35,088 bases of DNA from Bryobacteraceae bacterium (GTDB taxonomy: Bacteria > Acidobacteriota > Terriglobia > Bryobacterales > Bryobacteraceae). The translations under genes and the position numbers were made by a program. Below are positions 1,092 through 16,319 of the stretch, piece by piece (position 1 is the first letter of the stretch; each line of letters opens with the position of its first letter). The stretch lies in assembly GCA_030037375.1 (NCBI GenBank), contig JASHRP010000045.1, positions 1-35,088 of the forward strand. Direction: 5' to 3'. A model generated the notes under the pieces. It saw only the letters and a program-made list of their open reading frames with translations, had not been told where the DNA came from and made no database searches.

Positions 1092-1102
1092 GGGATGGTA
1101 AC

Positions 1103-2047
1103 GTGCTTCCGAAACCGCCATCTCTGCCCCCACTTAGTGCGCAATTTCAGAGTTCGTTCACGCCTCCGAAGCTGAGCGTGCCCGGAGCGCCATCTGCTCC
1201 CTCGGCTCCGCAGCCGGCCTCCGCGCCATCTGCTCCGTCGGCGCCACAGGCTCCATCGGTATCCGGAGCGCCATCGATGCCACAGGCGCCTTCGCTGCCG
1301 GGGACGCCATCGGCGCCCACGCCGCCGTCAGCGACGCCGCCGCCCGCGCCAGCGACTCCAGCGGCGCCGACTTCACAGTCGTGGGGTTACTGCCGTTCGT
1401 CGAGCGGTCAGACGCGCATCGACTCAGGCAATCAGTCGATCATCAACAATCCGCAGGCCGGGCAGACGATCCGGCTGGACCATGTGAATCAAACCGCCCA
1501 GATTTTCCCTTCCGGACAGGCTCCGAACATGCCTTCGATGCCCGGATCGGCTCCCACATTGACTCCTCCAAATCCGCCGATCAACGTCCAGGACCTAGGA
1601 ACAAAATCAGTCGCGGGACAAATGGCCCAGGGGAAGTTATACACGTACGCGATGCCAAAGCCGCCAGGGGTTCCGCAAGCGCCGAGCACGCCCCAAGCTC
1701 CAAGCGCACCGCAAGCTCCCAGCGCGCCACAAGCACCGGGAATGCCACAAGCCCCAAGCATGCCGTCGGCTCCGGCGTTGCCGCAACTGAAAACGGTCGA
1801 GGTGTGGAATAGTCCGCAGCTTCAGATGCCGGTGGCGAGCCGCGTTACCACGCCAATGGGAACGCAAACCACGCTGCCGCAGCAGATCACTCCTGGGGAA
1901 CCGTCGCCGTCGCAGTTCCAGATCCCGCCGGGATATAAGATCATCCCGCCGCCGTCTCTTTCGCCGCCCTCGATTCCCAAGCCATCGATTCCGAAGCCGC
2001 CCTCGCCGCCATCAATTCCGAGTCCGCCTTCGACGCCGTCGATTTGA
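1103..2047 (+). CDS. Proline-rich low-complexity protein of unknown function (APSAPQ / PQAPS / PSIPK repeat blocks separated by non-repetitive islands)
   Basis: 945-nt open frame with G/C-rich third positions. GTG at 1103 lies 11 nt after the DUF4280 stop, with AAGGGA 7 nt upstream. The ORF-track version starting at 737 overlaps the DUF4280 gene in another frame and is rejected. No signal peptide or TM segment is evident. Confidence 0.6.
   Translation: MLPKPPSLPPLSAQFQSSFTPPKLSVPGAPSAPSAPQPASAPSAPSAPQAPSVSGAPSMPQAPSLPGTPSAPTPPSATPPPAPATPAAPTSQSWGYCRSSSGQTRIDSGNQSIINNPQAGQTIRLDHVNQTAQIFPSGQAPNMPSMPGSAPTLTPPNPPINVQDLGTKSVAGQMAQGKLYTYAMPKPPGVPQAPSTPQAPSAPQAPSAPQAPGMPQAPSMPSAPALPQLKTVEVWNSPQLQMPVASRVTTPMGTQTTLPQQITPGEPSPSQFQIPPGYKIIPPPSLSPPSIPKPSIPKPPSPPSIPSPPSTPSI
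1181..1375 (+). repeat. Imperfect A/P/S/Q-coding repeat block 1 (APSAPQ-like units; Ser as TCN, Gln as CAG)
   Basis: Read directly: gcg cca tct gct ccc tcg gct ccg cag ... gcg cca tct gct ccg tcg gcg cca cag ... Confidence 0.6.
1660..1785 (+). repeat. Imperfect 18-nt-period repeat block 2 (PQAPS[A/T/M] units; Ser mostly AGC, Gln as CAA)
   Basis: Read directly: ccg caa gcg ccg agc acg ccc caa gct cca agc gca ccg caa gct ccc agc gcg cca caa gca ccg gga atg cca caa gcc cca agc atg. Confidence 0.6.
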
Positions 2048-2055
2048 GGACTGCC

Positions 2056-5000
2056 TTACTTGGCTACGTCGGCGACGCAACTCATCGCGGACAGGTAGCC
2101 TTTTTGGAAGACGGGCGGCGACGCGCCCATATCGAGGTCCAAGCGAATTGTGAGGGGATTGCCGTTCGCCAACCGTGTGATCTGATCCCCGCTCCTAAGT
2201 AACCATTCGAGGTTGCTAGTAGAACCCGGTCCCGCTGGCTTATCGGCCTTCGCAAGGAATCTGAATATGCCCCATAGACCGGGAAACGTCTGCCAGGTGG
2301 TTTCCAGGCCCCCGACTTTCGCCACGGCTTTAACGCCGGAGGAATCGCCGGGCCAATTGAATTGTTTGGCCGTGCCGTTACCGCCGTTGGAGGTGAGGTT
2401 CTGACCATCGATCGTCAGGTTAATCCCCTGGATTCCCTCGGAGCGGACGGGTTTGAGCGAATAGGTAAAGTGCAGATCGCCGGAACCGTACAATGCGCCG
2501 GAAAATGCAGCCATCCGGTTAAAGAAACTGACGAAAGCCGGAAGCAACGTGGGACTGCCGCTAGCCGCAGGCACGTAAACGCCGCCTTGCTTCGGCAGGA
2601 GTTTTTGCAGGTTTTGATCGTAGAATTTCCATAGCGAGCCATCCATCGGCTTGAAGATGGCGTTGATGTCGGAGATGCTGGCCTCGTTGGCGCTGGCCGC
2701 GTTAAACGGATACTTGGTCATCAATGCGCGAAGATCGGTACAAAGACTCTTACCGCCCTTATTCAGCGCCGCCGCACCCAAACCCTTCACCAGCGGCTCG
2801 ACGTAGGCGATGGGAGCCTCGATGAGCGACTGCACCGTACCGGCCATCGGGTCCACGCCGAAACTCTGCGCCATTCCACCGGTAACCACCTTCGCGGCAG
2901 TAGCGCTGTTCGCCGCTTGAAGGACGTTGGGGTCGTTCGGGTCGGAACTCGTGATCTGGCCCAGCGCAACTTGCAGCGCGAGCAACGCCTTCATGTAATC
3001 CTGATTGGGCGGCCCGACGTATTGATCTCCGCAAGAGGGCTGAACGACGCCGAGAAGGGGCTTGAAGGACTTTGCGATTTCCGAGTCCGCGCCCACATTT
3101 TGCGCGGCCATGCAGAACATAGCGAGCAAGGGCGATTGCGGACTAGAGGTGACTTGGAGCTTCTTGGCGGCATCAGGGACGCTATCGTATCTCACCACCG
3201 TGGTTTGCTTCAGGTAGTCCCGCCATTGAGCGACAAAATCGTTGCTATAAAGCGTCTGAAGATCGCTTTCGAGCTTGGCGCGGTCGCCAATCGCGGCCGA
3301 TTGATCGCCCAGGACCCATTGCTCGCCCGCGAAATACCGGTCGGCGTGCTTGATCGCGTCCTGCATCGCGGCCCAGCCGGCCTTGGTGTACGCGCCGGCT
3401 ACCTCACGAGTATTCACCACCGTTTGGGCCGAACCGGGAAATTTCTGGTTGAAAATCAACGACGGATTGTTCTTGTTCACTTCCGTGAGCATGAACCGGT
3501 ACACTCTCTCGGTTCCGGCGAACTGCGCTAGGTACCTGCGGGCGCGACTGATCGCGGAGGCGTCATTGTCGGCGGAGAACGGGTTTTCGAATCTCAATTC
3601 ATCACTATAAAAATCGAACTGCTTGCGCACGAGTTGCGCGCGCGCTGCATCCACGTTCTTGCCCGCCTCCCAGCGCGAGTAAAGCACGGGGGATAGATAG
3701 AGCTTGGTGCTCTTGTCGTGGTTCGAAGTCGTGATCAGGTAGGATTTGAGACTGTCGTATGGATACTGATACGAATCCGCTGGACCCGGACTAGACGGCA
3801 AGGATAAAAGATTCACAACCAAGCCGGTCTGTGTTGAGCTGAACAGAAGCTGGAAGAAACGGCGGAAATAAACTTTGCGGGCTTTTGGATAGATTTCTTG
3901 CCCGCTATACAATCCCCAGCGATAGCTCAGCGGCGCGCCTTCACGATTGTAACGCCCGATGGTCTCGAGCGACTGACGCAGGGCGTCGAGCTTGGTGAGA
4001 TCGTCGAGCGAAGGAATCGGCGGCGGAGTCGCGGTATCGAGCTTGATCGCCGCCGCAGCTTCCCGAGCGGTGGCCTGCAGATCGCTATTCTGATTGAACG
4101 ATACGGTCCATGCGATCGACAGAAAGAGACCCAGAGCCGCGGCGCAGGCCAGCAGCGCCAGCTTCAGCCGGCTGGTGGTCACGGTCAACGCGCTCCGGCC
4201 GAGAGCGGTTTCGTCGGCCAGGATCACCTGTGCGAACAGTTGCTTCAAAAAGAGCCACTGCGGCACTTTGCGGACGGCGGAGCTTTCGGCCTGCAATGCA
4301 GCGCCAGGGTCGGGACCGAGGCGAAAGACGCCGGTCGCGCCGGTGTCCGGACCCATTGCGCGCTTTGCCACCACAGGGGTAGGCGCAACGTCGCGCACCA
4401 TGATTGGACGGACTCCAGAGAAATAGAATCCGCGCAGGAAAGGGGCGGCGGTCAACTGGCTGGGGCGGCAAACGTCCAGCAGGAAGGCCGCAAGCAAATT
4501 GCGAATCTTACGAAACTCGCGGGGAAATTCGTAAGCCCCGGGCAATCGCTGCACGTCGCCTTCGCGGCCCAGGAAAGCCGTGCGGTGCTCGGCAAGGGAG
4601 AAATAGATCCGGTCCAGAGCAGCATTCAATTGCGCCGTCTGCTCCTCGTCGTAGGCTCCTTTGTTAACCCGCGCGGACAAGGTCGCGCCCAAGACCTGGA
4701 CCGATTCGTCGTTGGTTAGGGTTTGGAAATAGTCGGTGAAATAGGGGACCCGGTCCAGCTTGGTGAAGAGAACGTAGACCGGCAAGCTGATGCCCAGAGT
4801 CTGGGAAATGGTCGCGAGCCTTTCCCGCATTTCGCGAGCCAAGGCCGCAACACCCTCCGGACTGCGTGCCCGTATCAGTTCCTCACAATCGAAACACACC
4901 AGAGCGGCCCTTGGCGATTGGGCGCCCCTGCGAGTGGCTCCCTGCAGCGGCCCGGGGCGCATTCGCTGAATCAGCTTGGTCCACTGTCCGGCATCGGCAA

Positions 5001-5505
5001 GCGCCGCGGCTCCGGCTTCGAGGAAAACCCACTGCCGCGCGAACCAGGCGTTCACGAAGCGCGTGGGAGCGATGATGTTGCCTTCCTGATAAACCTGGCC
5101 GGCAAGCAACTCAGGCGCAAGCCCGGATTGCAAAATCGTGGTCGTTTTGGTCGCGCCGCGCGAGCCAAGCATCAGCAGCGCGGGAAGGCTCGCGAACCGC
5201 GCGTTCTTGCCCAAATTGGAGGATCGCAGCCGCTCCTCGGCTTCGCTTAGTAACTGCCCAAGCTGATCGTCGGACTTGCTGGAACCCGGTTCGGCAGTTT
5301 CCTTTTTCGCTGCATCTTCGGCTCTCTTTTCGGTCCACAGATAGGCGCCAGCGGCCACAACGCCGATCAAAGCCAATCCGCCGAAGAGGATCCAAAAATT
5401 GATGCCCGTGATTCCTAACAGCTTGGGGACGAGAAACGCAATGCCCAGATAGACCACCAAGGCTGCGCCAGCTACTTTAGCTTTATTCGAAAGCTCCTGA
5501 GACAT
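2056..5505 (-). CDS. tssM: Type VI secretion membrane-complex protein TssM (IcmF family)
   Basis: 1149 aa. Two N-terminal TM helices, a cytosolic P-loop-like region (LMLGSRGATKTTTI), a third TM (LALLACAAALGLFLSIAWTV), then a long periplasmic domain. Starts 2 nt after the tssL stop. Confidence 0.9.
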   Translation of the reverse strand: MSQELSNKAKVAGAALVVYLGIAFLVPKLLGITGINFWILFGGLALIGVVAAGAYLWTEKRAEDAAKKETAEPGSSKSDDQLGQLLSEAEERLRSSNLGKNARFASLPALLMLGSRGATKTTTILQSGLAPELLAGQVYQEGNIIAPTRFVNAWFARQWVFLEAGAAALADAGQWTKLIQRMRPGPLQGATRRGAQSPRAALVCFDCEELIRARSPEGVAALAREMRERLATISQTLGISLPVYVLFTKLDRVPYFTDYFQTLTNDESVQVLGATLSARVNKGAYDEEQTAQLNAALDRIYFSLAEHRTAFLGREGDVQRLPGAYEFPREFRKIRNLLAAFLLDVCRPSQLTAAPFLRGFYFSGVRPIMVRDVAPTPVVAKRAMGPDTGATGVFRLGPDPGAALQAESSAVRKVPQWLFLKQLFAQVILADETALGRSALTVTTSRLKLALLACAAALGLFLSIAWTVSFNQNSDLQATAREAAAAIKLDTATPPPIPSLDDLTKLDALRQSLETIGRYNREGAPLSYRWGLYSGQEIYPKARKVYFRRFFQLLFSSTQTGLVVNLLSLPSSPGPADSYQYPYDSLKSYLITTSNHDKSTKLYLSPVLYSRWEAGKNVDAARAQLVRKQFDFYSDELRFENPFSADNDASAISRARRYLAQFAGTERVYRFMLTEVNKNNPSLIFNQKFPGSAQTVVNTREVAGAYTKAGWAAMQDAIKHADRYFAGEQWVLGDQSAAIGDRAKLESDLQTLYSNDFVAQWRDYLKQTTVVRYDSVPDAAKKLQVTSSPQSPLLAMFCMAAQNVGADSEIAKSFKPLLGVVQPSCGDQYVGPPNQDYMKALLALQVALGQITSSDPNDPNVLQAANSATAAKVVTGGMAQSFGVDPMAGTVQSLIEAPIAYVEPLVKGLGAAALNKGGKSLCTDLRALMTKYPFNAASANEASISDINAIFKPMDGSLWKFYDQNLQKLLPKQGGVYVPAASGSPTLLPAFVSFFNRMAAFSGALYGSGDLHFTYSLKPVRSEGIQGINLTIDGQNLTSNGGNGTAKQFNWPGDSSGVKAVAKVGGLETTWQTFPGLWGIFRFLAKADKPAGPGSTSNLEWLLRSGDQITRLANGNPLTIRLDLDMGASPPVFQKGYLSAMSCVADVAK

Positions 5506-5507
5506 GG

Positions 5508-6170
5508 CTAGATTCCCGATGACCCGAGAGAGATCTTAAACGCGATAAACAGGATCAGCGCCAGGCCCAACAGAGACGAGGCGGCGATCGTCAACCATTT
5601 CAGCCTGGGATCTCCCTTGGCGGGCGCTGCGATTTCACCCTGCGGCGCCCAATCCGGCGAGAGCCAAGAGTCGCCGCGAATGTGCCGAATTTTCGCGGCG
5701 ATCGATTCCGCTACCGCGCGCAGCTCTCCCTTACCCATCACGGTGTACTTCCCACCATAGCCAAGGAGGATGCACAACAGGTAGACCTCCAGAATGTCCG
5801 CCAGAACGCTGGAATCCGGTTGCGCCATGAGATTGTCGACGTTGCTAAAAAAGACTTCGCCGGCCTGATGCCCTCCAAACACTTCCTGTTGCAGGGGCCT
5901 GCGTGGCCAGTCCGCGAATACGGGATTGCGCGAATTAAGGATCGATTCGTCGAGCAGCGCGATCACGGCGAACATCGCCAGGCGCACGTCGTCCCGTGAA
6001 TAGCCGCGTTTGGTTCCTTCTTCGTTGGCGAGAACGAACTGTTGCCGCATCTCAGCACGAAAAACCTCCGGGTCCGCGACCTTTTCCCGGCTGGCTCGGA
6101 TTCGTTCGATGGCCGTGAGCGCCTCTTGAAACACCAGCGCCAAATTGTCGTATTGTCTGTCCGGTTGCAT
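5508..6170 (-). CDS. tssL: Type VI secretion protein TssL (DotU family), without a peptidoglycan-binding extension
   Basis: Internal ATG at 6168-6170 gives a 220-aa DotU-like protein (MQPDRQYDNLALVFQEALTAIERI...) with one C-terminal TM (WLTIAASSLLGLALILFIAF). The longer ORF-track form reaching 6395 overlaps the tssK 3' end and is Arg/Ser-rich noise. Confidence 0.85.
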   Translation of the reverse strand: MQPDRQYDNLALVFQEALTAIERIRASREKVADPEVFRAEMRQQFVLANEEGTKRGYSRDDVRLAMFAVIALLDESILNSRNPVFADWPRRPLQQEVFGGHQAGEVFFSNVDNLMAQPDSSVLADILEVYLLCILLGYGGKYTVMGKGELRAVAESIAAKIRHIRGDSWLSPDWAPQGEIAAPAKGDPRLKWLTIAASSLLGLALILFIAFKISLGSSGI

Positions 6171-6180
6171 AAACGGAGTC

Positions 6181-7530
6181 TCAGGACTCGAGAACCGCGA
6201 GAAGCTGAATATCGGGTTTCGGAATGTCTCCCGGCACGTAGATCCCAACGCCCTTGGTGGTGACGATGTGCTCCCAGAACGGGCCGCTCTTGTTGACGCG
6301 GAAGTACTGCGTCGCGACACGCGCGGCGATCGCCGGCGGAGGAACTGGCACGTGAGCCAGCGGCAAGCCAGGCAGAGCTCGCTTGACCAACTCACCGACG
6401 AATTTCTCCGAGCAGAGCTTCACAAGCTGAGGGACCTTCTGGATCAAATCCACGTCGCCCATGTCCGCGCGAACCGCGAGATACCAGGACGAATTTCCGA
6501 AGCAACGTTGATCGGTGACTTGCCCTGCGTAGTAATAAGCCGCCGTGGAATGCAGCGGGATCGAAAGGCAATTGGTGGGAATGATCAGCTCCAGATGCTC
6601 CCGGATGTGACGGTCGAGGGCATCGAAGCATTCGTCTGGATGCAGGTGGTCGTAGGCGGGGAGCGTTCTCGGATGGGAGGCTAGCGCAAACGTGCAGAGC
6701 GCGCCGGCAAGGCGCGAAAGCTCGATATACAATTCCTGCGGATGACCGCGCTTCGAGAAATAAAAGTGTCGAAGCGGAGACAGGCTGGCGTTCACCGTAT
6801 GGAGAAACCAAAAGCTGGCAATCTCGCGGGTGGAGAACCCGATGGCGCCCGCCAATTCCGCGGCCCGCGTCAGGCCGGCGATCTTCTCCTCCATCAACTC
6901 AATCAGCGGTCCAAGCAGGTTCATCAAGCGGGGACTGGCGCTGATCTGAAGCGTCGGACCGATGAAATTCGGATCGAAGACGAACTTTCCCGAACCGGAA
7001 CGCATCACGCGCGCGATGGGGAGGGTCATCAAATCGTCGGTCTGTTCGGTTTCGAAGATGATCCTAAGGTTCTTGCGTCCGATCCGGATCTGCTTCTCGT
7101 CTTGGCCGGTGGTGTCGTCGTGAAGCGTCTGCGTCTCGGCGATGTACCGGTAGCCGTCCGGCTCCGCCAACGGGGTAAGGGCGCAGTTTACCCCGTTGTT
7201 CTTACGCCAGGGGAGCGCGAGCATGACGGTCAGCCGATTGCTAGCCGGCGAGATGACCGACGCGACGTCGCGCGGCGGAGGCAGTTGATCCGATTCAGGC
7301 ATGTGAAATGCCGTACCGTCGGGCATGATGCCGCGGGCATGAAGAATCGCGACCGTGCCGTTGCTCAAGGCCTCCTCATCCAACGCGTACCCGGTCACGC
7401 CGTAAGTGCCGTCCCACAGCGCCTCCGTAACGAAGTGAATGGAGTCCTCGAAGTAGCGGCTTTGGGCCTGGAAATGGTGCGGCCCAAGGTACATGCCCTC
7501 GGCCCACACTACCCGTGAAAGATTCTTCAT
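6181..7530 (-). CDS. tssK: Type VI secretion baseplate protein TssK (copy 1, in the tssK-tssL-tssM block)
   Basis: 449 aa. The N-terminus VVWAEGMYLGPHHFQAQSRYFED matches the conserved TssK/ImpJ/VasE signature. Gene order tssK-tssL-tssM is canonical. Confidence 0.9.
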   Translation of the reverse strand: MKNLSRVVWAEGMYLGPHHFQAQSRYFEDSIHFVTEALWDGTYGVTGYALDEEALSNGTVAILHARGIMPDGTAFHMPESDQLPPPRDVASVISPASNRLTVMLALPWRKNNGVNCALTPLAEPDGYRYIAETQTLHDDTTGQDEKQIRIGRKNLRIIFETEQTDDLMTLPIARVMRSGSGKFVFDPNFIGPTLQISASPRLMNLLGPLIELMEEKIAGLTRAAELAGAIGFSTREIASFWFLHTVNASLSPLRHFYFSKRGHPQELYIELSRLAGALCTFALASHPRTLPAYDHLHPDECFDALDRHIREHLELIIPTNCLSIPLHSTAAYYYAGQVTDQRCFGNSSWYLAVRADMGDVDLIQKVPQLVKLCSEKFVGELVKRALPGLPLAHVPVPPPAIAARVATQYFRVNKSGPFWEHIVTTKGVGIYVPGDIPKPDIQLLAVLES

Positions 7531-7599
7531 GGTCAGGTTATAGCCCGCCGGATAATAATACTAGCATCCCTATTGTATGTGGTGAAATAGGATACAGTC
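7531..7599. promoter_or_regulatory. Divergent intergenic region (tssK1 leftward, repeat-motif gene rightward), AT-rich
   Basis: The two genes diverge from this 69-bp gap, so at least one promoter must lie here or within the flanking coding sequence. It contains the inverted repeat CCTATT-N11-AATAGG (7569-7574 / 7586-7591). No consensus promoter could be defined. Confidence 0.4.
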
Positions 7600-8961
7600 A
7601 TGAACCTGTTCGACGGTTTGCAGCTCCTTGAGCAGATCAAGGACGGTGAAGTCAAGAGTTATCTGGCAGCCGATCCTCCTCGAGGCCGCAACTTGCTGGT
7701 TCACTGGATCTCCGTGGACGCGGGCTCGGAGGTTCGCGAGCTGCTCGAGTTGGTGGACGGGCTTCCATCGGCGGGCCGATTCCTGATTCTGGAAGCGGGA
7801 ATTCGGGACGGCCGCATTTACCTGATCACCGAGAACCCTCCGCAATTTCCAGGCTTGAAAGAATGGTTGCTCTCAGCCGGACGCTCGTTGGCGGCCGCTG
7901 GCCAAGCACAGGTTCCGGAGCGAACCGCAGAGATGCCCATTCCCGAAACGGCCGGGGCGCAGCCCGAGCAGTCCGCTCCTGTGCCCGTCGCGGCGGGTGT
8001 TCCGGTAACAACGTCTGTGGCGCCGGTGAACGCGCCCCCGGCTTCGAGCCCTGCTCCCGCTCCGGGAGAGTTTACTCGACTGTTCGAAGCGCCAACGTTT
8101 CCCGCAGCCCAGCTTCCCGTTGTGACGCCGGTTGTGCCACCGCCTGCTGCTCCACCTGCTACTTTTCAACCCCCGCCTGTACAAGCTCCGACGGCGCCAC
8201 CTCCGGTATCGCAACCCGCATCCGCGCAGCCGGGCGAATTTACGCGACTGTTCGCGAGGCCGGAAGCACCACCGGCGCCGCCTCCGTTGGTGCAGCCCGT
8301 TCAGTCGCCGCAGCCCGTGCCGTCATCGCAGCCGCCGGGCGAGTTCACGCGCGTGTTTCAGGCGGGATCGCTCCAAGCCTTGGGCGCTCAGGGTTTGGGC
8401 CCGCAAGCTCCAGCTACGCCCACCGTACCCGTGCCCAAGCCGGCGCCTCCCAAAACCGAACCTGGCGAGTTCACGCAGTTCTTCCAGAGCCCTGGCCAGC
8501 CGAAAGCTCCCGCTCCCCCGGCATCCATCCCTGGCAAGCCGGCAGACCACGACTTTACGAAGTTCTTGCAATCGCCCCTGGCAACGCCGACGCCGTCAAC
8601 CGCAAACGACGATTACTTCTCGAAGCCCGAAGTGAAAGCGCCCGCGGGACAGGGTGCAGGCGAATTCACGCAAATTTTTGGAAGACCCGGCGGTCCGCCT
8701 GAGGCCCCGCAGTCAAGGGAAGCTACCGGCGTTTTCAGCAAGCCGCCCGCGGCGCAACTGGGCCAGGGCCCCAGCGAGTTCACTCGAATCCTAGGTCCGC
8801 AATCCGTGCCTGCGGCCCCCGAACCCGCGCCCGCGCCGCCCAAACCAGTTGCGGCGAAGCCCGCCCCGGCGGCTCAGAAGAACCTGTTGCCCTTGATTCT
8901 GATCCTGGCGGTCCTAGCCGTGCTAGCGCTGGTTCTCGTCTTCCTATTCATCCGCAAATAG
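7600..8961 (+). CDS. Tail-anchored Pro-rich protein with seven [G/S/H]-[E/D]-F-T-x-x-[F/L] motifs and a degenerate kinase-N-lobe-like N-terminal domain; function unknown
   Basis: 453 aa. RBS AGGA 7 nt upstream of the ATG. Residues 1-90 resemble Hanks-kinase subdomains I-V but lack the Gly-loop and the beta3 Lys. The C-terminus LLPLILILAVLAVLALVLVFLFIRK is a single TM. G/C-rich third positions support coding. Confidence 0.75.
   Translation: MNLFDGLQLLEQIKDGEVKSYLAADPPRGRNLLVHWISVDAGSEVRELLELVDGLPSAGRFLILEAGIRDGRIYLITENPPQFPGLKEWLLSAGRSLAAAGQAQVPERTAEMPIPETAGAQPEQSAPVPVAAGVPVTTSVAPVNAPPASSPAPAPGEFTRLFEAPTFPAAQLPVVTPVVPPPAAPPATFQPPPVQAPTAPPPVSQPASAQPGEFTRLFARPEAPPAPPPLVQPVQSPQPVPSSQPPGEFTRVFQAGSLQALGAQGLGPQAPATPTVPVPKPAPPKTEPGEFTQFFQSPGQPKAPAPPASIPGKPADHDFTKFLQSPLATPTPSTANDDYFSKPEVKAPAGQGAGEFTQIFGRPGGPPEAPQSREATGVFSKPPAAQLGQGPSEFTRILGPQSVPAAPEPAPAPPKPVAAKPAPAAQKNLLPLILILAVLAVLALVLVFLFIRK
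8065..8793 (+). repeat. Seven dispersed peptide-motif repeats: GEFTRLF (8065, 8233), GEFTRVF (8338), GEFTQFF (8464), HDFTKFL (8548), GEFTQIF (8659), SEFTRIL (8773)
   Basis: Codons read directly at each site, e.g. GGA GAG TTT ACT CGA CTG TTC vs GGC GAA TTT ACG CGA CTG TTC vs GGC GAG TTC ACG CGC GTG TTT. Synonymous differences show the conservation is at peptide level, not recent DNA slippage. Weaker copies are DDYFSKP and TGVFSKP. Confidence 0.8.
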
Positions 8962-8978: not shown

Positions 8979-10334
8979 TTACTGAGCCTGCGGGAAAAGA
9001 ACGATCAATTCGACCTGCGGATTCGGAAAATCTGCGGGGATATGAGCCGCGAAATTCCGCGCCCGAATGATCGACTCCCACGCACCGCCGGATTGGTTCA
9101 AGCTGAAGTACTGGTAATTCATTTTCACGGGAATTGAGTTCGGCGGCGAGGAAACGTGTGTCAACGGAACGCCTTTGAGCGCCTGGCGCACCAGCAGCTC
9201 GATGTGCGTGGCGGATGCGACCTTCAGCAGCTTCGGAACCTTGTCAATCAACTCCGCTTGCTTCAATTCGGAATTAATCGCCAGATACAAACGGGTGTTG
9301 TTGAGGTATTTATCCTCGGCGAGCGCGGTCGCATAGATCGACGGCTGCACTTGTTTCAAGGCAAGCGACACGAAATTGCTTGGCACCACCGTTTCCAGCA
9401 ACAAGCGGATCTTGGAGTCCAACTCCGAAAAGCAGAAGGACAGATTGTCGTGATCGTACTTAGGCAGATCGCGCGCGTGGACTTCGGTTGAAAACGTAGT
9501 CAGCGGGCCGGCCAGGGAGAGCATGGTGTGGAACACGCGTTCGGGATGGCCTTTAGCCGCCTGGAAGAAGTGATTCAGCAGCGGGAAGCTCGAGTTGATG
9601 GTATACAGCAGCCAAAAGTTGGCGATATCGGATGCCGTGAAATTTGCCAAGGCTTGGTTCTTTTGGCGGCGGTTCCCGGAGAGCTCGCTGATCTTGGCCG
9701 CGAGAATCTCCACCAGGCGGCGGACAATCGACACAAGGTATTCGCTGGCCTGAAAATCCACAAGCGGCGCGACGAAGGTGCGGTCGAGCTGATACGCGCC
9801 GGACTGAGTGCGCTGCACCCGGGCGACGCGCATCGCGGAGGTTCCCTCGCGGACCTCGCTCTTCACCATCAGACGCAGGTTCTTGCGGGCGACTTGGATC
9901 GGTTTCTCCGACTGTCCGGTGTTCTCATCGCGCATCATCGAGACTTCAGCGTGGTAGCGCGTCTCGGCATTGAGCTGAACGCCGGAGACGTTCAACCCAC
10001 GATCGCGATGACGCGGCACGGCCAGGAAAACGTCCACGGTGTCCTGATCCATTTCGTAGCAATCGACCAGCGATTTCGGCGGCGGGCAAGCGTCGGATTC
10101 GGGACAATCGAACAACAGGCCGTCCGCGAACATCCCCGCCGTCCGCGTCAGCGCAAACGTCCCTGAGCCGAGAGCCGCATGATCGATTTCCAAGCGTTGA
10201 AATCCCCACGGACGGAAGTTCAGCGATTCCGTATGGAATTGCAAAGTGTCTTCAATGAACCGGTCCTGGCATTGAAGATGCTGCGGCGTTAGAAACGTGC
10301 CCTTGGCCCAGATGACGGGCTGCAATCGCCTCAT
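8979..10334 (-). CDS. Second, diverged TssK-family baseplate protein (copy 2)
   Basis: ATG at 10332-10334 (MRRLQPVIWAKGTFLTPQHLQCQDRFIED...) with a GAGGGG RBS. 451 aa and colinear with TssK1 from the N-terminal signature to the C-terminus (ADFPNPQVELIVL vs GDIPKPDIQLLAVL). By eye roughly one third to 40 percent identical over the first 90 aa. Confidence 0.85.
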   Translation of the reverse strand: MRRLQPVIWAKGTFLTPQHLQCQDRFIEDTLQFHTESLNFRPWGFQRLEIDHAALGSGTFALTRTAGMFADGLLFDCPESDACPPPKSLVDCYEMDQDTVDVFLAVPRHRDRGLNVSGVQLNAETRYHAEVSMMRDENTGQSEKPIQVARKNLRLMVKSEVREGTSAMRVARVQRTQSGAYQLDRTFVAPLVDFQASEYLVSIVRRLVEILAAKISELSGNRRQKNQALANFTASDIANFWLLYTINSSFPLLNHFFQAAKGHPERVFHTMLSLAGPLTTFSTEVHARDLPKYDHDNLSFCFSELDSKIRLLLETVVPSNFVSLALKQVQPSIYATALAEDKYLNNTRLYLAINSELKQAELIDKVPKLLKVASATHIELLVRQALKGVPLTHVSSPPNSIPVKMNYQYFSLNQSGGAWESIIRARNFAAHIPADFPNPQVELIVLFPQAQ

Positions 10335-10441
10335 ATCCCCTCTACGATATCTCAGGTACGAGCGCCGGCACAGCACTAGCGAGAAGTTCGCGGCACGCCG
10401 AGCGCGCGAAAGGGTAAGCTATTTCAGAGCGAGGTCGGACA
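10335..10441. promoter_or_regulatory. Divergent intergenic region between tssK2 and the TssB-TssC-like fusion gene
   Basis: The genes diverge from this 107-bp gap. Two GGCAC-N-GC sites with sigma54-like spacing are noted under findings. No firm promoter assignment. Confidence 0.35.
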
Positions 10442-11827
10442 ATGCCATCGAATTCCTCTAGTTCCGTTCTATTGGACGTGAACGCCGGCGATCCCGCGGA
10501 TCGCCCGCAGCCCTGGCCGGTGGAAGCCGCTTCGGACGATCCATTCCGTATTCTCATCCTCGGAGATTTCAGCGGGGGCGAAAGCCGTCCGCCGCTCGCT
10601 TCCCGCATCCCGCAAGAAATCGATCGGGACAACTTCGATGAGGTGCTCGCAAGGCTGGGTGTCCAGGTGGCTCTGCGATTCGGCCCGGATGCGGCCGTGC
10701 GGCTGAAGTTTCGGGGGCTTGCCGATTTCGAGCCGGATTCTATCTTCGAGCGTTGCGAACTGTTCCATGGAGCCGCGCCGGCGCAAGCAGGCAGCGAAGC
10801 GCGGCGCCAGTCGACACGGCACGAAGAAATTGAGGAGCGCGGCTCGCTGGAATCCGACGCTGCCCGAATCACGTCGGGGAGCCTTCTCGACGATATCGTG
10901 GCGGGCACGGATGTTACTGGGCGAGCGAAACCGAAAGACGATCTGCAGGCGATCGTGGACCGCTTGGTTGCCCCGCACCTTGACCGGTACTCACCGGAGG
11001 ATCGCTCCAACCGCGACCGCGCGCATTCTGCTGTCATGCGAGCCGTCCTGCACGATCCTCAATTTCAGGCTCTCGAATCCGCATGGCGCGCGCTCGATAT
11101 GGTGGCGCGCGGCCTGGATACGGATGGCGCACTGAGCATTCACATCCTCGACGTGACTAAGGCGGAACTGGATCGCGGTCTGAAGGATCTGGCTCCGCGG
11201 CTGGCCCCGCGGGAGCCCTGGGCGGTAATCGTTTGCAATTTCGTGTTCGATCGCTCGGCAGGCGACGTCGCGTTGCTTAAACGGCTGGGAGACCTCGCGG
11301 TTCGCGCTGGCGCGCCGGTGATCGCCGAGTCGGCGCCCCCAGACGAGGATTCGGAGAGTCCGGAATGGCGCACGCTGCGTGGTTCGCCGGAAGCGCGCTG
11401 GCTGGGCCTCGCGCTTCCTCGGTTTCTGGCCCGCGTGCCCTACGGAAAGGCCACGTACGAAATTGAGAAATTCGCCTTTGAAGAGGTTGAAGGCGCGCCG
11501 GAGCATCGTGATTTTCTGTGGGCGAATCCGGCGTTTGCGTGCGCGTTACTGCTAGGCCGCGCCTTCGAGGAATACGGCTGGAAGTTTCGCCCGGGCGCGG
11601 TCAGGCAGATGAGCGGCTTGCCCTTCTGCGCGTTCGAGGTGAACGGGGAAATGCGGTCACAGCCTTGCGCCGAGATTCTGCTAACCGACCATCAGATCGA
11701 ATACATTCAGGAGCAGGGCTGCATGGCCCTCGCCCCCATGAAAAACAGCGATGTCGCGATGCTGGTGAGATTTCAATCCATAGCCGACCCCGTGACCGCG
11801 CTCGCCGGGCGTTGGAAGATCAGTTGA
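10442..11827 (+). CDS. Single-chain sheath-like protein: TssB-like N-terminal region fused to a TssC-like core, lacking the TssC C-terminal ~125 residues
   Basis: 461 aa. Residues 33-108 (DPFRILILGDFSG, DNFDEVLARLGVQVALRF, LKFRGLADFEPDS) parallel canonical TssB in this window (IPFVMGVLGDLTG, DNFDSVLDSMKPHLAFSV, LNFKSMDDFEPDA). Residues 146-447 parallel canonical TssC (GSLLDDIV/GSLLDEIV; DPQFQALESAWRALD/HPEFQRLEATWRGLQ; LPRFLARVPYGKATYEIEKFAFEE/VPHILMRVPYGKDTRTIEAFNFEE; FLWANPAFA/YLWGNAAYA). The match ends at about TssC residue 370 of 495. Confidence 0.8.
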   Translation: MPSNSSSSVLLDVNAGDPADRPQPWPVEAASDDPFRILILGDFSGGESRPPLASRIPQEIDRDNFDEVLARLGVQVALRFGPDAAVRLKFRGLADFEPDSIFERCELFHGAAPAQAGSEARRQSTRHEEIEERGSLESDAARITSGSLLDDIVAGTDVTGRAKPKDDLQAIVDRLVAPHLDRYSPEDRSNRDRAHSAVMRAVLHDPQFQALESAWRALDMVARGLDTDGALSIHILDVTKAELDRGLKDLAPRLAPREPWAVIVCNFVFDRSAGDVALLKRLGDLAVRAGAPVIAESAPPDEDSESPEWRTLRGSPEARWLGLALPRFLARVPYGKATYEIEKFAFEEVEGAPEHRDFLWANPAFACALLLGRAFEEYGWKFRPGAVRQMSGLPFCAFEVNGEMRSQPCAEILLTDHQIEYIQEQGCMALAPMKNSDVAMLVRFQSIADPVTALAGRWKIS

Positions 11828-13658
11828 TTTCGACGATCGGCGAGCCCTGAATCGAGATACCCGACGGACCTAGCGTGATCGAGTTCGCGCCGCAGGTGAT
11901 CGTGATTTGCTGGTTGGCTGTGATGCTAATCGATCCTGTTACGTTGATCGTCTGATTTTGGCTAACCGTAAGCGTGTCGTTTTGGGTGACGGTCCAACTG
12001 CGATTCTGGCTGACGGTTCCGGTCTCATTCTTCGTTACGCTCTCGGTCCGGTTACCGCTGATGGTGACAGTCTCGTCGTTTTGAACCGTGCGGCTTTGGT
12101 TGTGCTTGACCAGGATGTTAAGGTCCTTCTGAGCTTGCAGGTAGACCTCCTCGTTCGACATCTTGTCTTCGAAGCGCAGTTCGTTGTAGTCGGAGCTTCC
12201 TCCGCCGGGTGAACTGCGGCTCTGGAAGGTGCTGCGCGTTGAATTGGCCGGCAACGCGTAAGGGACCGTTTGCTGCTCGTTATAAACACGCCCCACAATC
12301 AACGGCCGGTCCGGATCGCCTTCCAGGAAATCGACCACGACTTCCTGGCCGATGCGCGGAATCCAGATCCCGCCCCAGCTCTTCCCGGCCCAGGGTTGCG
12401 ACACGCGGATCCAGCATGAACTGTTTTGGTCTTTTTGGCCTATGCGATCCCAAAAGAACTGCACCTTGACCCGTCCGTATTGATCGGTGAAGATCTCTTC
12501 GCCGCTGGGTCCCACGACAACCGCGGTCTGCGTTCCATGCACGATTGCGCGTGGCGTTATTCGCGGAGGACGGTACTGAACCGTCGCCGGAAAACATTCG
12601 AAGCTATTGCTGTAATTGTCTTGTCCCTCAGCCATGCCGCCGAATAAGCTGGCTTGGACCGCCCGATGGCTCACGGAGAGCAAAACGTAAGTAGAGTTCT
12701 GGTCCGTCTGCTCGTGATTCGTCAACGTGAATTTATACCCGGAAGCAAAAGACCGGCATCCGCTCTCTCCTTGCGCCGTATCGTAGCCGGCTTCCTCCTC
12801 TTCCATGCGGAGCTTTGTCAGCGGCTCACCGTCGCCTTTGGTCAAATATTCTCCCGGATAATCGAAGAATTCGTAATTCGTGGCCTGGTCGATGGAGAGA
12901 ACTGTCGTCTCGTTCGCAAGCAGACTGGTTGTCGGCGTCTCGAAGTTGTAATCGGTCTGGGTCCACTTACCGGAGCGGTATTGATAATGGCGCTCCCATG
13001 CGTATACCGAATCTTCGCTGTGGATGCCGCCGCGCGTGAGCTCCATCGGCACGGTGGATTGATAATCGCAGTTCTGCGGCACGGTGGAGCTATCCCCGAT
13101 CACCATCACGTGCTTCCCGTTTGAGTGTTGAAAGAAATAAAACATTCCTTCTTTTTCCATCAAACGGGAGATGAAGTTGAACGCAGTTTCGCGATATTGT
13201 ACGCAATAATCCCACGCGTTATGCGTGCCACTGAGTTTGAATTGGTAATCGTTAAAGCTCAGATTCGAAAAAATCTGCTCCATCACTTGCTGGACCGTCA
13301 TCTGCTGAAAGATGCAGCAGTCGGTGGTGCGTGTGAGAAACCAGGTCCACGGTACGATCCGGAGCTCGTACTCGAAGAATACATGGCGCGGCGGGCGTCT
13401 CGGCAGCTTGGCGAAGTGCGAGACGAACCCATCGAAGTACCGCTGGGTGGAATCGTCGGCTTGCAGAATAGACAGAGTCACCCGCTTACCGACGATGTCC
13501 TGGGCGGAAATCGAGCCATTCTCGGAAGCCAGCTCGACCCGGTATTCGTAGAGGCGCGAAATGCTTTCCGTACCCTCAAACAACCGCGGCACGAGTACGT
13601 CCGGGCCGAGCGGCGTGGTGATTTGGATTAATCGATTCGCTTGTTTAAGGTCCGCCAC
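11820..13658 (-). CDS. vgrG: Type VI secretion spike protein VgrG (TssI), no C-terminal effector extension
   Basis: 612 aa, GTG start at 13656-13658. The N-terminus ITTPLGPDVLVPRLFEGTESISRLYEYRVEL is the VgrG/gp27-like signature. The C-terminal beta-helix repeats (TVTISGNRTESVTKNETGTVSQNRSWTVTQNDTLTVSQNQTINVTG) are gp5-like. Confidence 0.9.
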   Translation of the reverse strand: MADLKQANRLIQITTPLGPDVLVPRLFEGTESISRLYEYRVELASENGSISAQDIVGKRVTLSILQADDSTQRYFDGFVSHFAKLPRRPPRHVFFEYELRIVPWTWFLTRTTDCCIFQQMTVQQVMEQIFSNLSFNDYQFKLSGTHNAWDYCVQYRETAFNFISRLMEKEGMFYFFQHSNGKHVMVIGDSSTVPQNCDYQSTVPMELTRGGIHSEDSVYAWERHYQYRSGKWTQTDYNFETPTTSLLANETTVLSIDQATNYEFFDYPGEYLTKGDGEPLTKLRMEEEEAGYDTAQGESGCRSFASGYKFTLTNHEQTDQNSTYVLLSVSHRAVQASLFGGMAEGQDNYSNSFECFPATVQYRPPRITPRAIVHGTQTAVVVGPSGEEIFTDQYGRVKVQFFWDRIGQKDQNSSCWIRVSQPWAGKSWGGIWIPRIGQEVVVDFLEGDPDRPLIVGRVYNEQQTVPYALPANSTRSTFQSRSSPGGGSSDYNELRFEDKMSNEEVYLQAQKDLNILVKHNQSRTVQNDETVTISGNRTESVTKNETGTVSQNRSWTVTQNDTLTVSQNQTINVTGSISITANQQITITCGANSITLGPSGISIQGSPIVEIN

Positions 13659-13667
13659 GTGAGTGTC

Positions 13668-16319
13668 CTAAGCGTATACGAACTGCCCGTTCTCTCCAAT
13701 CGTTACCCGGATCGACGATAGCTTTTGGCCATCGGCAAGACCGGCTAAAATGCGGCGTGAGATGTCGGGGAGCAAGGTATTCGTCAGGATGTTGTCGACG
13801 TTGCGGGCGCCGCTCTCCACTTCCGTGCAGCGGCTGGCGACTTCATTGAGCAGCGCTTCATCGTAAAGCAGCTCAATCCGGTGATTTTCTAGAAGGCGGC
13901 GCTTGATCTTTCCGAGCTTCAGACGGATGATCTGCTTCAGCGCCTCGTCGCGGACGGGGTAGTACGGAATGATTACCATGCGCCCGAGGAACGCGGGTTT
14001 AAAAATCTTGTTCAGGTCCGGCTTGATGGCCTTGATCAAGCCATCGGCCGTCGGCATGGTCTCTGGATCGGCCGTCAGCTTAGCGATCTGATCCGTGCAC
14101 GCGTTGGTGGTCAGCAGGATGATCGTGTTCTTGAAGTTGATCTCGCGTCCTTCTCCGTCTTCCAGGATGCCCTTGTCGAATACCTGATAGAAGAGCTCCA
14201 GAACGTCGGGGTGCGCCTTCTCCACTTCATCGAGCAGCACCACTGAGTACGGCCTCCGCCTCACGGCCTCGGTGAGCACTCCGCCCTCGCCGTAGCCGAC
14301 GTAGCCGGGAGGCGAGCCCTTCAGGGTGGAGACGGTATGCGCTTCCTGAAACTCCGACATATTGATCGTGATCAGGTTGCGCTCTCCCCCGTAGAGCAGG
14401 TCGGCCAGCGAGAGAGCGGTCTCGGTTTTTCCGACGCCGCTCGGTCCCACCAGCATAAATACGCCGACAGGCTTGCCCGGATCGTCGAGACTGCTCCGCG
14501 ACGTGCGCACCCGCTCCGAAATCAAGTGCAGGGCATGATCCTGTCCGATCAGCCGGCGGCCGAGATGCGATTCGAGCTCAAGGATCATCGAGATCTCGTC
14601 CTTGAGCAGCTTCCCGACCGGGATGCCGGTCCATCCGGAAATCACTTCGCCGATGATCTGTGCGTCGACGCACACTCGCATCAAAGGGTTTTCGCCTTGG
14701 ATCTGATCCAACTTGCTCTGGAGTACCGACATCTCTTCCCGGGCTTGCGTGGTTTCGGCCGAGCCCGAGGTCGCCTGCGCGGCGGCAGCGCCGGCGGCCA
14801 AAGCGCTACCCTCTAGTTTGGTCCGCAACTCGCGAATTTTTCCGACCAGATCGCGGATCTCTTTCCATTTCTCCTGTAACACCGCAAGCTTAGCCTGCAC
14901 GTCCGCTTTGCTCTTGGCAATCTGCGCGAGACGTTCGGCGTGGTCCGTGCCGACCGCCGATTCGCGGGTGAGCACACGCTCCTGCACCTCGAGCGAGTCA
15001 AGCTGGCGGGTCAAATCCTCAATCGGGGCGGGCGTCGCCTCCTGGCTCAAGGAAAGCCGAGCGCACGCCGTGTCGAGCACGCTAACGGCTTTATCGGGGA
15101 GTTGGCGTTCCACCAAATAGCGATTGGACAGATGCACGGCCGCGGAGACCGCTTCGTCCAGAATGCGGACGTTGTGATGTTTCTCCAAAGCTCCGACGAT
15201 GCCGCGCAGCATCACCACGCAATTGTGCTCGTCCGGCTCGTCGACCTTCACCACCTGGAAGCGACGCGTGAGAGCGGGGTCTTTTTCGAAATATTTCTTG
15301 TACTCGGACCACGTCGTGGCTGCGACGGTGCGCAGTTCTCCGCGCGCCAGCGCCGGCTTTAAGAGATTAGCCGCGTCGTTCTGTCCGGCTTGTCCGCCCG
15401 CGCCGATCATCGTATGAGCTTCGTCGATAAACAGAATGATCGGAGTCGGCGACGATTTGACCTCTTCGATAAGGCCCTTAAGCCGGTTCTCGAATTCGCC
15501 TTTGATCCCGGCCCCAGCCTGCAGCAGCGCGAGGTCAAGGCTGCGAACGGTCACGTTCTTCAACGGCGGCGGAACGTCGCCGAGGGCTACGCGCATCGCG
15601 AAGCCTTCGACCACAGCCGTCTTGCCGACGCCGGCTTCGCCGGTCAGGATCGGGTTGTTCTGCCGCCGGCGCAACAGGATGTCGATAAGCTGGCGGATCT
15701 CGAAATCACGCCCCAGAACCGGATCGATCTTTCCTTTTTTTGCCCGATCGGTTACATCGACGGTGAACTGATCGAGATTCGGCGTCTTGCCGCTGCCCTT
15801 GGGCGTAGCCGGGGAGTCCTCGCCACCCGCCGCCGCGGTTGATTCCTCGCTTGAGCCGGCGGTGATGTTCGCAAACTCCTTCTCCAGCGTCGCGACGTCG
15901 ATCTTCTGAAGCTCGCGGCTGGATTCATGCGCTTGCCGCGCCAGCTCCTCGTTCATGACCATCGCGAGAACAGTGTGACCGGTACGGATTCGCGACGCTC
16001 CGAAGGTGAGCGAGCCGATGTTCCACGCCTCCGACAGCATCTTGACCAGAGACGGGCTCAGCGACGGCGTACGCGCATTCCCGGACTTCAGTCTGTCCAA
16101 GCTGCGGTTTAGCTCCGTCGCAAGCCGGCTGCGATCGATCTCGAAGCGCCGGAGGATCGGCAGGAAATCGCCGTCCTGAACGTCCAGCAGCTTCAGAAGG
16201 TAATGCTCAATCTCGATCGCATAATGCGTTCGGGACAGGCAAAGCCCAGCGGCGGCTTCCACGCTTTTGCGGGTCGCGTCGTCGAGCTTGCCGATCAAAG
16301 ACTTTAAATTCACGGCCAT
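13668..16319 (-). CDS. clpV: Type VI secretion AAA+ ATPase ClpV (TssH)
   Basis: 883 aa. Clp N-domain, two AAA+ modules with Walker A motifs (GEAGVGKTA and GPSGVGKTE). Positioned between tssG and vgrG. Confidence 0.92.

Follow-up and report, generated by a model that had tools for sequence, protein, structure and literature searches.

Among the described components of type VI secretion systems (T6SSs), the protein closest in layout to the one considered here is Fha (TagH). In Acidovorax, Fha is built from an FHA domain (residues 1-101), an intrinsically disordered region (IDR; 102-561) and a C-terminal domain that attaches to the membrane by an amphipathic helix. Its condensates recruit TssL and TssE, and both the membrane complex and the baseplate depend on it (bioRxiv 10.1101/2023.12.21.572528). 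The kinase PpkA also forms condensates (PMC12607579) and, in Agrobacterium, phosphorylates Thr14 of the membrane-complex protein TssL (PMC3953482). We have analysed a 35,088-nucleotide stretch of DNA from a Bryobacteraceae bacterium (GenBank assembly GCA_030037375.1, contig JASHRP010000045.1; the window), which holds a complete T6SS cluster according to Pfam and NCBIfam gene identification and, between the two tssK genes of that cluster, a gene here called X. Its product is, with high confidence, a conserved, tail-anchored protein encoded in T6SS clusters, in which a kinase remnant reduced to the N-lobe is followed by a disordered chain with a conserved array of short motifs.

Like X, Fha/TagH is encoded in T6SS clusters together with PpkA-like Hanks kinases and sometimes a PP2C phosphatase, has an N-terminal domain of a phospho-signalling type of about 100 amino acids (aa), an IDR several hundred residues long and, at the C-terminus, an element that binds the membrane, and is proposed to act at the interface of membrane complex and baseplate. 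The parts, however, are different. Fha has an FHA domain (PF00498), whereas X has a kinase N-lobe fold, which is not the FHA beta-sandwich and has no Pfam match; Fha uses an amphipathic helix in a helical C-domain, whereas X has a true transmembrane (TM) helix; and X carries a discrete repeated motif of a kind undescribed for Fha. No homology between the two was detectable. As X lacks both what defines a protein kinase (Gly-rich loop, beta3 lysine and C-lobe) and what defines Fha/TagH (the FHA domain), it was treated as a family of its own, set apart from both and probably working like Fha, of which we infer by analogy that it may be the functional equivalent.

A second point of comparison is TssL (DotU), which shares with X a C-terminal TM anchor, a cytoplasmic bulk and a gene beside tssK and tssM, and which shows that a membrane-bound T6SS protein can be a substrate of PpkA, with one site as against the many candidate sites of X. 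Unlike TssL, X has no DotU fold or Pfam match and is mostly predicted to be disordered.

The kinase-like N-terminal domain and the membrane anchor

The ATG start of X is supported because its orthologues open with the same MNLFDGLQ... sequence. The full protein gave zero Pfam families at E<=10 and zero NCBIfam matches, with none to any T6SS core component (TssA-M, Hcp, VgrG, ClpV), and the Pkinase model matched none of 46 family N-domains. The AlphaFold2 (AF2) model of residues 1-96 has a mean predicted local distance difference test score (pLDDT) of 89.8 and runs beta1-beta2-beta3-alphaC-beta4-beta5 followed by a helix; in the full-length model the domain (1-100) lies above pLDDT 90. When the 1-96 model was compared with the PDB by Foldseek, the top 50 hits were all protein kinases, matched in their N-lobes (prob 1.00, TMq 0.5-0.63, about 85 aligned columns). 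A profile of the 46 N-domains gave weak matches (E 0.005-1) to PDB sequences, almost exclusively Ser/Thr kinase N-lobes in register from beta1, the exceptions being a few repeat-protein and cNMP-binding artefacts. The same profile was aligned by hhalign with seven Hanks kinases (the two of the window and five from related loci), which placed X 4-81 on kinase 9-93 (Prob 89%, E 2.3e-6).

In the hhalign alignment, KD-GEV of X stands opposite the Gly-rich loop (GQGGMA) of kinase 1 of the window, His35 opposite the beta3 Lys41 of that kinase, and Leu51 opposite the kinase alphaC Glu; Thr77 of X takes the gatekeeper position ahead of a retained hinge Glu. No C-lobe (HRD, DFG) was found in X: the match stops at residue 81 in the hinge, and residues 101-425 are predicted to be disordered. 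An earlier interpretation of this DNA from its letters alone (the sequence-only reading) had aligned residues 1-90 by eye with Hanks-kinase subdomains I-V of the two kinases of the window and had noted the loss of the Gly-loop and the beta3 lysine and the missing catalytic lobe; the profile, alignment and structural comparisons bear out all of these points.

Judged from the models and profiles, the N-terminal ~95 residues of X are thus an N-lobe-only Hanks-kinase remnant, neither a kinase nor a full pseudokinase. Because the Gly-loop, the beta3 lysine and the C-lobe are all lost, X cannot be a kinase, and the remnant is predicted to be incapable of binding ATP or of catalysis. At the same time His35, Gly67, Thr77 and Trp89 are each at least 90% conserved across the family, and the domain has therefore been selected for a new, non-catalytic role. 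To our knowledge an N-lobe-only module is not an established domain class. The KIND domain is a non-catalytic interaction module formed from the kinase C-lobe only, and X resembles it only in the reuse of one kinase lobe.

Receptor kinases of the PknB/PpkA type share with X the N-lobe from beta1 to beta5 with alphaC in register. In kinase 2 of the window, a Pro-rich linker and a TM helix connect the kinase domain with an ectodomain; in X, an N-lobe is followed by a Pro-rich linker and a TM helix. Since this order of parts is shared, X looks derived from a PknB/PpkA-type receptor kinase through loss of the C-lobe and the ectodomain. It differs from these kinases in the absent Gly-rich loop, C-lobe and ectodomain, in having His35 for the beta3 Lys, and in an alphaC Glu that is not clearly retained. 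PknB-type kinases dimerise via their N-lobes and are phosphorylated on juxtamembrane Thr residues; by analogy, it is plausible that X docks kinases through its stub and is phosphorylated in its linker.

In 71 of 120 homologues, a GxW[KRQH]x element follows shortly after the stub (~20 residues on), for example 'ETAGAWKV' in homologue P0050; the X of the window has lost this element and has AGQAQV in its place.

At the other end of the protein, the hydrophobic run that forms the TM helix ends three residues before the C-terminus, is followed by RK and is better conserved among close orthologues (identity 0.80) than the N-domain. X has no signal peptide and no N-terminal hydrophobic segment. According to topology rules and the cytoplasmic type of the N-domain fold, X is probably tail-anchored in the inner membrane with its bulk in the cytoplasm. 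A periplasmic (N-out) topology was ruled out, as it would require the translocation of 428 residues in a protein that has no signal peptide, and the kinase fold is of a cytoplasmic type. The single C-terminal TM segment and cytoplasmic bulk proposed earlier are thus upheld by hydrophobicity and by the AF2 helix.

A conserved motif array in a disordered linker

Between the N-domain and the TM helix, X holds seven motifs of the form [G/S/H]-[E/D]-F-T-[R/Q/K]-x-[F/L], all matching [ED]FT[RQK]x[FLIM] and spaced 56, 35, 42, 28, 37 and 38 residues apart, exactly the number and the range of spacings (28-56) given by the sequence-only reading. In 200,000 composition-preserving shuffles of X the mean motif count was 0.002 and the maximum 1, and only one further match, in tssC, was found in all six frames of the window. 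The linker around the motifs (residues 97-420) contains 79 Pro and 53 Ala among 324 residues.

As DNA, the motif copies are 70-78% identical over 27 nt, with differences at synonymous sites, and no long DNA repeat runs across them. Recent expansion of a DNA repeat as the origin of the motifs was ruled out on these grounds, and the conservation therefore lies in the peptide. Among the eight closest orthologues, identity is 71% in motif columns versus 28% in spacer columns, and length varies by the insertion or deletion of whole motif-plus-spacer modules. Purifying selection, as read from this alignment, acts on the motifs and not on the spacers, and conserved islands in a divergent linker are the signature of functional short linear motifs. 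The earlier argument from synonymous codon differences is supported by these figures, which also show the conservation in orthologues whose lack would have refuted the sequence-only reading. In eukaryotes, short-linear-motif arrays place many copies of one motif in a disordered chain and so gain avidity; X shares with them only this logic; motifs, readers and kingdom differ.

Full-length AF2, run on a 61-sequence alignment and read for confidence and secondary structure, gave ~325 linker residues at pLDDT ~50, which together with the composition supports the disorder that had been suspected. The sole secondary structure in the linker is a helical turn of 3-4 residues at four of the seven motifs (158-160, 216-218, 292-295, 355-357), which suggests that the motif copies could be two-turn nascent helices bracketed by Pro/Gly. 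Docking of the motifs on the N-lobe of X itself was considered as well and is unsupported by this model, in which the motifs stay at pLDDT ~50.

The array is a property of a whole family. A word-indexed search gave at least 222 full-length homologues, practically all unnamed or 'hypothetical' and, where named, from Acidobacteriota. The 120 of these that were listed, on which the architecture statistics rest, share the N-domain, 3-11 motifs (median 6) at a median spacing of 37 residues, and the C-terminal TM helix; open reading frames (ORFs) from the genome scan described below have up to 15 motifs. An exhaustive search with the N-domain profile reached at least 1662 representatives of 50%-identity clusters at E<=1e-3 (812 at <=1e-10), with the domain at the N-terminus among the matches listed. 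X belongs to a large unnamed family of Acidobacteriota and Gemmatimonadota, defined by an N-lobe stub, a PGEFTRMF array and a C-terminal TM helix beside tssK, tssL and tssM, all of which the X of the window has. No paper was found on the motif strings, nor any account of X in the literature on T6SSs of Acidobacteria and Gemmatimonadetes.

The family consensus of the motif is E-P-G-E-F-T-R-M-F-Q-[AS]-P, and five classes of element can be told apart: EPGEFTRMFQAP, GEFTKFFQSPLA, DDYFSKP, ATGVFS and GPSEYTRMF. DDYFSKP and ATGVFS, both conserved, are additional to what the sequence-only reading had recorded. The upstream EPGEFTRMFQAP copies differ in number between homologues, while the last four or five elements (GEFT[KR]FFQSPLA, DDYFSKP, GEFTxxFG, ATGVF and GP[GS]EYTRMF) are positionally orthologous and individually distinct, the last of them lying a median of 40 residues ahead of the TM helix. 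An ATG[MV]F element is also found at the N-terminus of relatives that do not have the N-lobe.

At the motif Thr position the family counts are Thr 628, Glu 8, Ala 4 and Ser 3, and a hydrophobic residue follows at +3. The near-exclusion of Ser can be likened to that shown by phosphothreonine (pThr)-specific systems. Such a pattern, with Glu as the commonest replacement, would be unusual for a purely structural Thr, and it counts against a first alternative to phosphorylation, namely that the GEFTRMF motifs act, whether phosphorylated or not, as helical peptides fitting into a groove of a single T6SS structural protein (TssK1, TssK2, the cytoplasmic domain of TssL/TssM, or TagJ/ImpE). X would then be a constitutive docking array that raises subunit concentration at the membrane, with the Thr as a structural contact or helix cap. 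The nascent helix at the motifs, the conservation of all positions from G to the distal F and not of Thr alone, the tight synteny with tssK1, tssK2, tssL and tssM, and the many loci without a kinase in their visible part all fit such an array. However, kinases, and pairs of kinase and PP2C without an FHA substrate, recur at these loci, no receptor emerged from the analysis, and the relatives without an N-lobe have no Pfam-recognisable tssK adjacent to them. We regard constitutive docking as rather unlikely. TssK2 and the TssB/TssC-like fusion had been named earlier as possible receptors; the analysis pointed to neither of them in particular.

The regular spacing of aromatic and Arg islands in a long IDR (median 37 residues) raises another possibility, in which the motifs, with their two Phe and Arg/Met, are 'stickers' between Pro-rich 'spacers', or bind the N-lobe stub of neighbouring molecules, so that X forms a homotypic condensate and nucleates T6SS assembly without a specific partner. 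One folded domain joined to many motifs is a classic network-forming architecture, and the condensates of Fha and PpkA are precedents. Against this, AF2 showed neither a rise in confidence at the motifs nor docking on the N-domain, relatives without the N-lobe retain the same motifs, and the conservation of Gly, Glu and Thr exceeds what generic stickers need; the explanation is improbable.

Gene neighbourhood, signalling enzymes and the place of Fha

The occurrence of the motif was followed across genomes with a motif-only DNA scan, using a degenerate pattern for PGEFTR[MLIVF]F on one genome per species (185,579 species). The scan returned at least 120 blocks, which are a sample, and each locus is a fixed 8-kb block that often cuts genes. 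Blocks with multiple hits came from Acidobacteriota (Bryobacterales, Solibacteraceae, Terriglobia, Acidobacteriaceae) and Gemmatimonadota (Gemmatimonadaceae, Longimicrobiales); single matches in other phyla look like chance. Among the matches listed, 94 ORFs had two or more motifs, and 63 of these had the N-lobe domain, the others being cut at block ends or belonging to a variant without the N-lobe. A true kinase domain was present in 0 of the 94, which ruled out that the motif also decorates real kinases. The survey of motif carriers that had been suggested earlier thus ties multi-motif ORFs to the X family, to which, among these 94, the motif appears to be exclusive.

T6SS genes lay in the same 8-kb block for 79 of the 94 multi-motif ORFs. 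The dominant gene order, tssM- tssL- tssK1- X+ tssK2-, was also found in six 20-kb loci fetched via individual homologues, down to 28-29% identity. This synteny between tssK1 and tssK2 across two phyla makes the link of X to the T6SS much stronger than the sequence-only reading could show.

It also bears on whether X might be a general membrane scaffold, for example in envelope or polysaccharide biogenesis, whose T6SS location is incidental and which has no role in secretion. Three paralogues with the same architecture, P0050, P0040 and P0012 (loci L004, L005 and L006), do lie outside T6SS loci, and their neighbours include genes for an Fe-dependent alcohol dehydrogenase and a GT4 glycosyltransferase/methyltransferase. 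Yet T6SS flanks with X in a fixed position and orientation recur in two phyla, down to ~25-30% identity, and such synteny is not kept by chance; an incidental location is very improbable.

A variant that lacks the N-lobe, with at least 240 homologues, is divergent from tssL-tssM in Acidobacteriaceae clusters; the variant protein of two 20-kb loci (L131 and L132) starts MTEDxKKPG...DPLSATGMFLNAF. As it is kept at T6SS loci, adjoining tssL-tssM, the motif array with its TM helix can be regarded as the T6SS-associated core, and the N-lobe stub as common but dispensable.

The window cluster encodes two Hanks kinases, and no FHA/TagH, TagF or PP2C gene was found in it with Pfam and NCBIfam. Elsewhere, a kinase with Pkinase and FGE-sulfatase domains lies directly downstream of tssM (L128) or at the cluster edge (L002), and kinase matches were found in eight 8-kb blocks too. 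In L131 and L132, Pkinase and PP2C genes stand beside tssM and there is no annotated FHA protein; L082 and L116 have PP2C as well. Where such a kinase and phosphatase stand without Fha, their usual partner, some other substrate or scaffold is needed. In L131 (2781-5238) and L132 (1749-4199) the pair, Pkinase(+DUF8082) and PP2C, has a DUF4280 (PAAR-like) gene between its members.

TssJ (SciN) lipoprotein, TagH/Fha and TagF were neither detected in the window cluster nor annotated in the 20-kb loci L001, L002, L007 and L128-L132. The T6SS lineage of X may therefore lack the outer-membrane lipoprotein. A cluster-encoded FHA protein as the reader of pThr was considered and rejected, as the window has none and the loci offered only two matches. 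One, at 2900-4357(+) in the X-bearing locus L130 next to tssM, is a protein of 485 aa that begins with an FHA domain, continues through a TM segment and ends in a lytic transglycosylase (SLT) domain, and which could be a pThr-recruited peptidoglycan-remodelling enzyme; the other is a weak match that adjoins tssK2 in L017.

It is quite possible, although we put this forward tentatively and partly by analogy, that X is a membrane-tethered multivalent scaffold that fills the role of Fha in these lineages and is tuned by Thr phosphorylation. X would sit at the cytoplasmic face of the TssL/TssM membrane complex and would concentrate subunits of the baseplate and membrane complex (TssK1/TssK2, TssL) or their regulators there, taking the place of Fha/TagH, which is lacking in the window cluster and was not annotated in the homologous loci examined. 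The motif threonines would be the probable targets of the cluster-encoded Hanks kinases, PP2C would reverse their phosphorylation where it is present, and the phosphorylation state would thus determine valency and affinity. The Thr counts at the motif position, the hydrophobic residue at +3, the two kinases of the window and the kinases and PP2C of related loci lend indirect support to the reading of the threonines as phospho-acceptors, one of the two options proposed earlier. Docking or dimerisation with the N-lobe of a true kinase is a possible role of the N-lobe stub.

Several observations weigh against this proposal. Kinases were found in only ~10 of ~90 partial blocks; of the 12 loci in which the tssM-distal side is visible, only 2 have one directly downstream of tssM. 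The window has no PP2C. FHA proteins are rare among the loci, the L130 protein and the weak L017 match being the ones found, and the absence of Fha covers the window and eight 20-kb loci. A structural binding epitope would account for the strict conservation of G, E, F and the distal F no less well than a kinase consensus does, and AF2 shows no docking of the motifs on the N-domain of X. Finally, the paralogues outside T6SS loci indicate that the family has at least one other cellular role, and that its molecular activity is not T6SS-specific.

A further enzyme is found beside X in some lineages. A protein of ~485 aa is encoded just downstream of X in 23 of the loci examined, co-directional with it in 14 of the 23 with gaps down to ~23 nt (23-70 nt in L020, L060, L065, L095 and L106), and in a 24th, L128 (1448-2899(-)), it lies ~7 kb upstream; the 24 loci include L131 (11617-13086(-)) and L132. 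The protein has DUF7059, MTS (with an NPPF or HPPY motif) and DUF7782 (weakly PqqD-like) domains, and its best NCBIfam similarities are to the HemK/PrmC/PrmB protein N5-glutamine methyltransferases. By its domains it could methylate proteins, with X or another T6SS protein as its target. Since the motifs have [R/Q/K] at +1 and often Gln at +4, they might then be recognition or modification sites for a HemK/PrmC-like N-methyltransferase with a PqqD/RRE-like peptide-binding domain, an idea suggested by the gene's position and its similarities. However, the gene is missing from most loci and from the window, where tblastn found none and X is followed by tssK2 after 17 nt, and the enzyme could have another T6SS protein as its substrate; that the motifs are primarily methylation sites is quite improbable.

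Combining these elements, X could be imagined as a 'decapitated' receptor kinase turned into the nucleating scaffold of an Fha-less T6SS lineage of Acidobacteriota and Gemmatimonadota. Its stub would pair with the N-lobes of the cluster kinases, kinases and PP2C would write and erase phosphate on up to 15 identical Thr motifs of the tethered disordered chain, the HemK-like methyltransferase would add a second mark in some lineages, and the resulting valency would switch the recruitment of the TssK1/TssK2 baseplate to TssL/M. This fuller scheme is speculative and unlikely. If true, it would be a graded, multisite, post-translational firing switch with parts that are not homologous to any known T6SS regulator.

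The window cluster and meaning of the X family

The positions of X, its elements and the genes around it are collected in Table 1. X starts 69 bp from the start of the divergent tssK1 and ends 17 nt from the end of the convergent tssK2; the remaining genes of the window supply TssA, B, C, Hcp, E, F, G, ClpV, VgrG, K (twice), L and M.

Table 1. Features of gene X and of the T6SS cluster in the window (positions count from the first nucleotide of the window).
Feature	Position	Strand	Basis
X, complete gene, 453-aa tail-anchored motif-array protein	7600-8961	+	ORF; orthologues with same start and architecture
Degenerate kinase N-lobe, aa 1-100, beta1-beta2-beta3-alphaC-beta4-beta5 plus helix	7600-7899	+	AF2, Foldseek, hhalign, PDB profile
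Pro/Ala/Gln-rich linker, predicted disordered, carries motifs, aa 101-428	7900-8883	+	AF2 pLDDT ~50
Motif 1, GEFTRLF, aa 156-162	8065-8085	+	conserved 0.71-1.0 in orthologues
Motif 2, GEFTRLF, aa 212-218	8233-8253	+	sequence and orthologue alignment
Motif 3, GEFTRVF, aa 247-253	8338-8358	+	sequence and orthologue alignment
Motif 4, GEFTQFF, aa 289-295; in a module present or absent among orthologues	8464-8484	+	
Motif 5, HDFTKFL, aa 317-323; positional orthologue of GEFT[KR]FFQSPLA	8548-8568	+	
DDYFSKP conserved element, aa 337-343; second class of short motif	8608-8628	+	
Motif 6, GEFTQIF, aa 354-360; positional orthologue of GEFTxxFG	8659-8679	+	
ATGVFS conserved element, aa 375-380	8722-8739	+	
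Motif 7, SEFTRIL, aa 392-398; positional orthologue of the family's last motif GP[GS]EYTRMF	8773-8793	+	
C-terminal TM helix, aa 429-452, then last residue Lys453	8884-8955	+	AF2 helix 430-452, pLDDT >90; hydrophobic run
AT-rich divergent intergenic region X/tssK1, 69 bp	7531-7599	.	one sigma-70-like match per strand, consensus matches only
tssM	2056-5505	-	Pfam/NCBIfam
tssL	5508-6395	-	Pfam/NCBIfam
tssK1, first gene of divergent tssK1-tssL-tssM unit, conserved neighbour	6181-7530	-	Pfam and NCBIfam TssK; synteny
tssK2, convergent paralogue, conserved neighbour	8979-10376	-	Pfam/NCBIfam; synteny
TssB/TssC-like fusion	10442-11827	+	Pfam/NCBIfam
vgrG	11820-13658	-	Pfam/NCBIfam
clpV	13668-16319	-	Pfam/NCBIfam
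tssG	16342-17376	-	Pfam/NCBIfam
tssF	17340-19175	-	Pfam/NCBIfam
tssE	19165-19665	-	Pfam/NCBIfam
tssA	19670-21430	-	Pfam/NCBIfam
impE/tagJ	21434-22153	-	Pfam/NCBIfam
hcp	22186-22680	-	Pfam/NCBIfam
tssC	22751-24238	-	Pfam/NCBIfam
tssB	24243-24764	-	Pfam/NCBIfam
Hanks Ser/Thr kinase 1, soluble, directly upstream of tssB; candidate kinase for X	24985-26208	-	Pfam/NCBIfam
Hanks Ser/Thr kinase 2, Pro-rich juxtamembrane linker and TM helix; candidate kinase for X	26362-28107	+	Pfam/NCBIfam

Both TssK proteins that flank X are full-length, and each is 54-87% identical to its own orthologues as against 34-40% to those of the other paralogue; the paired arrangement recurs in Acidobacteriota and Gemmatimonadota. 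The tssL ORF (295 aa, GTG start) overlaps tssK1 by ~215 nt, and its true start is probably near 6180, as orthologues have only 222-247 aa. The TssB/TssC-like fusion (461 aa) joins a partial N-terminal region of TssB (VipA) to the N-terminal domain of TssC (VipB), does not have the VipB_2/gp25-like C-domain and scores under the NCBIfam cut-offs; similar genes are present beside canonical tssB and tssC in L001, L002 and L128. Convergent with tssM is a 436-aa ORF (737-2047(+)) of putative coding status, which is very rich in Pro, has APSAPQ-type repeats and matches no Pfam or NCBIfam model. Just outside the cluster, past an amino-acid permease, stand two tandem genes of the Phosphoesterase family (PF04185; phospholipase C / acid phosphatase-like) at 30107-31723(-) and 31760-33295(-), which might be T6SS-related lipase effectors or unrelated.

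Models of T6SS assembly come nearly all from Proteobacteria, where Fha is described as a condensate-forming initiator of assembly. Soil Acidobacteriota and Gemmatimonadota have abundant T6SS clusters, and those examined here are without Fha but have kept kinases. As a conserved gene that stands at the centre of these clusters and has no family model, X is the clearest candidate for the scaffold or substrate that is missing. If the proposed scaffold role is true, one design, with a small signalling domain joined to a membrane anchor by a long, disordered, multivalent chain, would have evolved twice from unrelated parts, and X would offer a clean, repeat-encoded system for the multisite phospho-regulation of a bacterial nanomachine. 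Whatever its function, an N-lobe-only kinase remnant that is under purifying selection in at least 1662 cluster representatives is an unusual domain, and the X family merits a Pfam/NCBIfam model of its own and a name in the Tag/Tss style.

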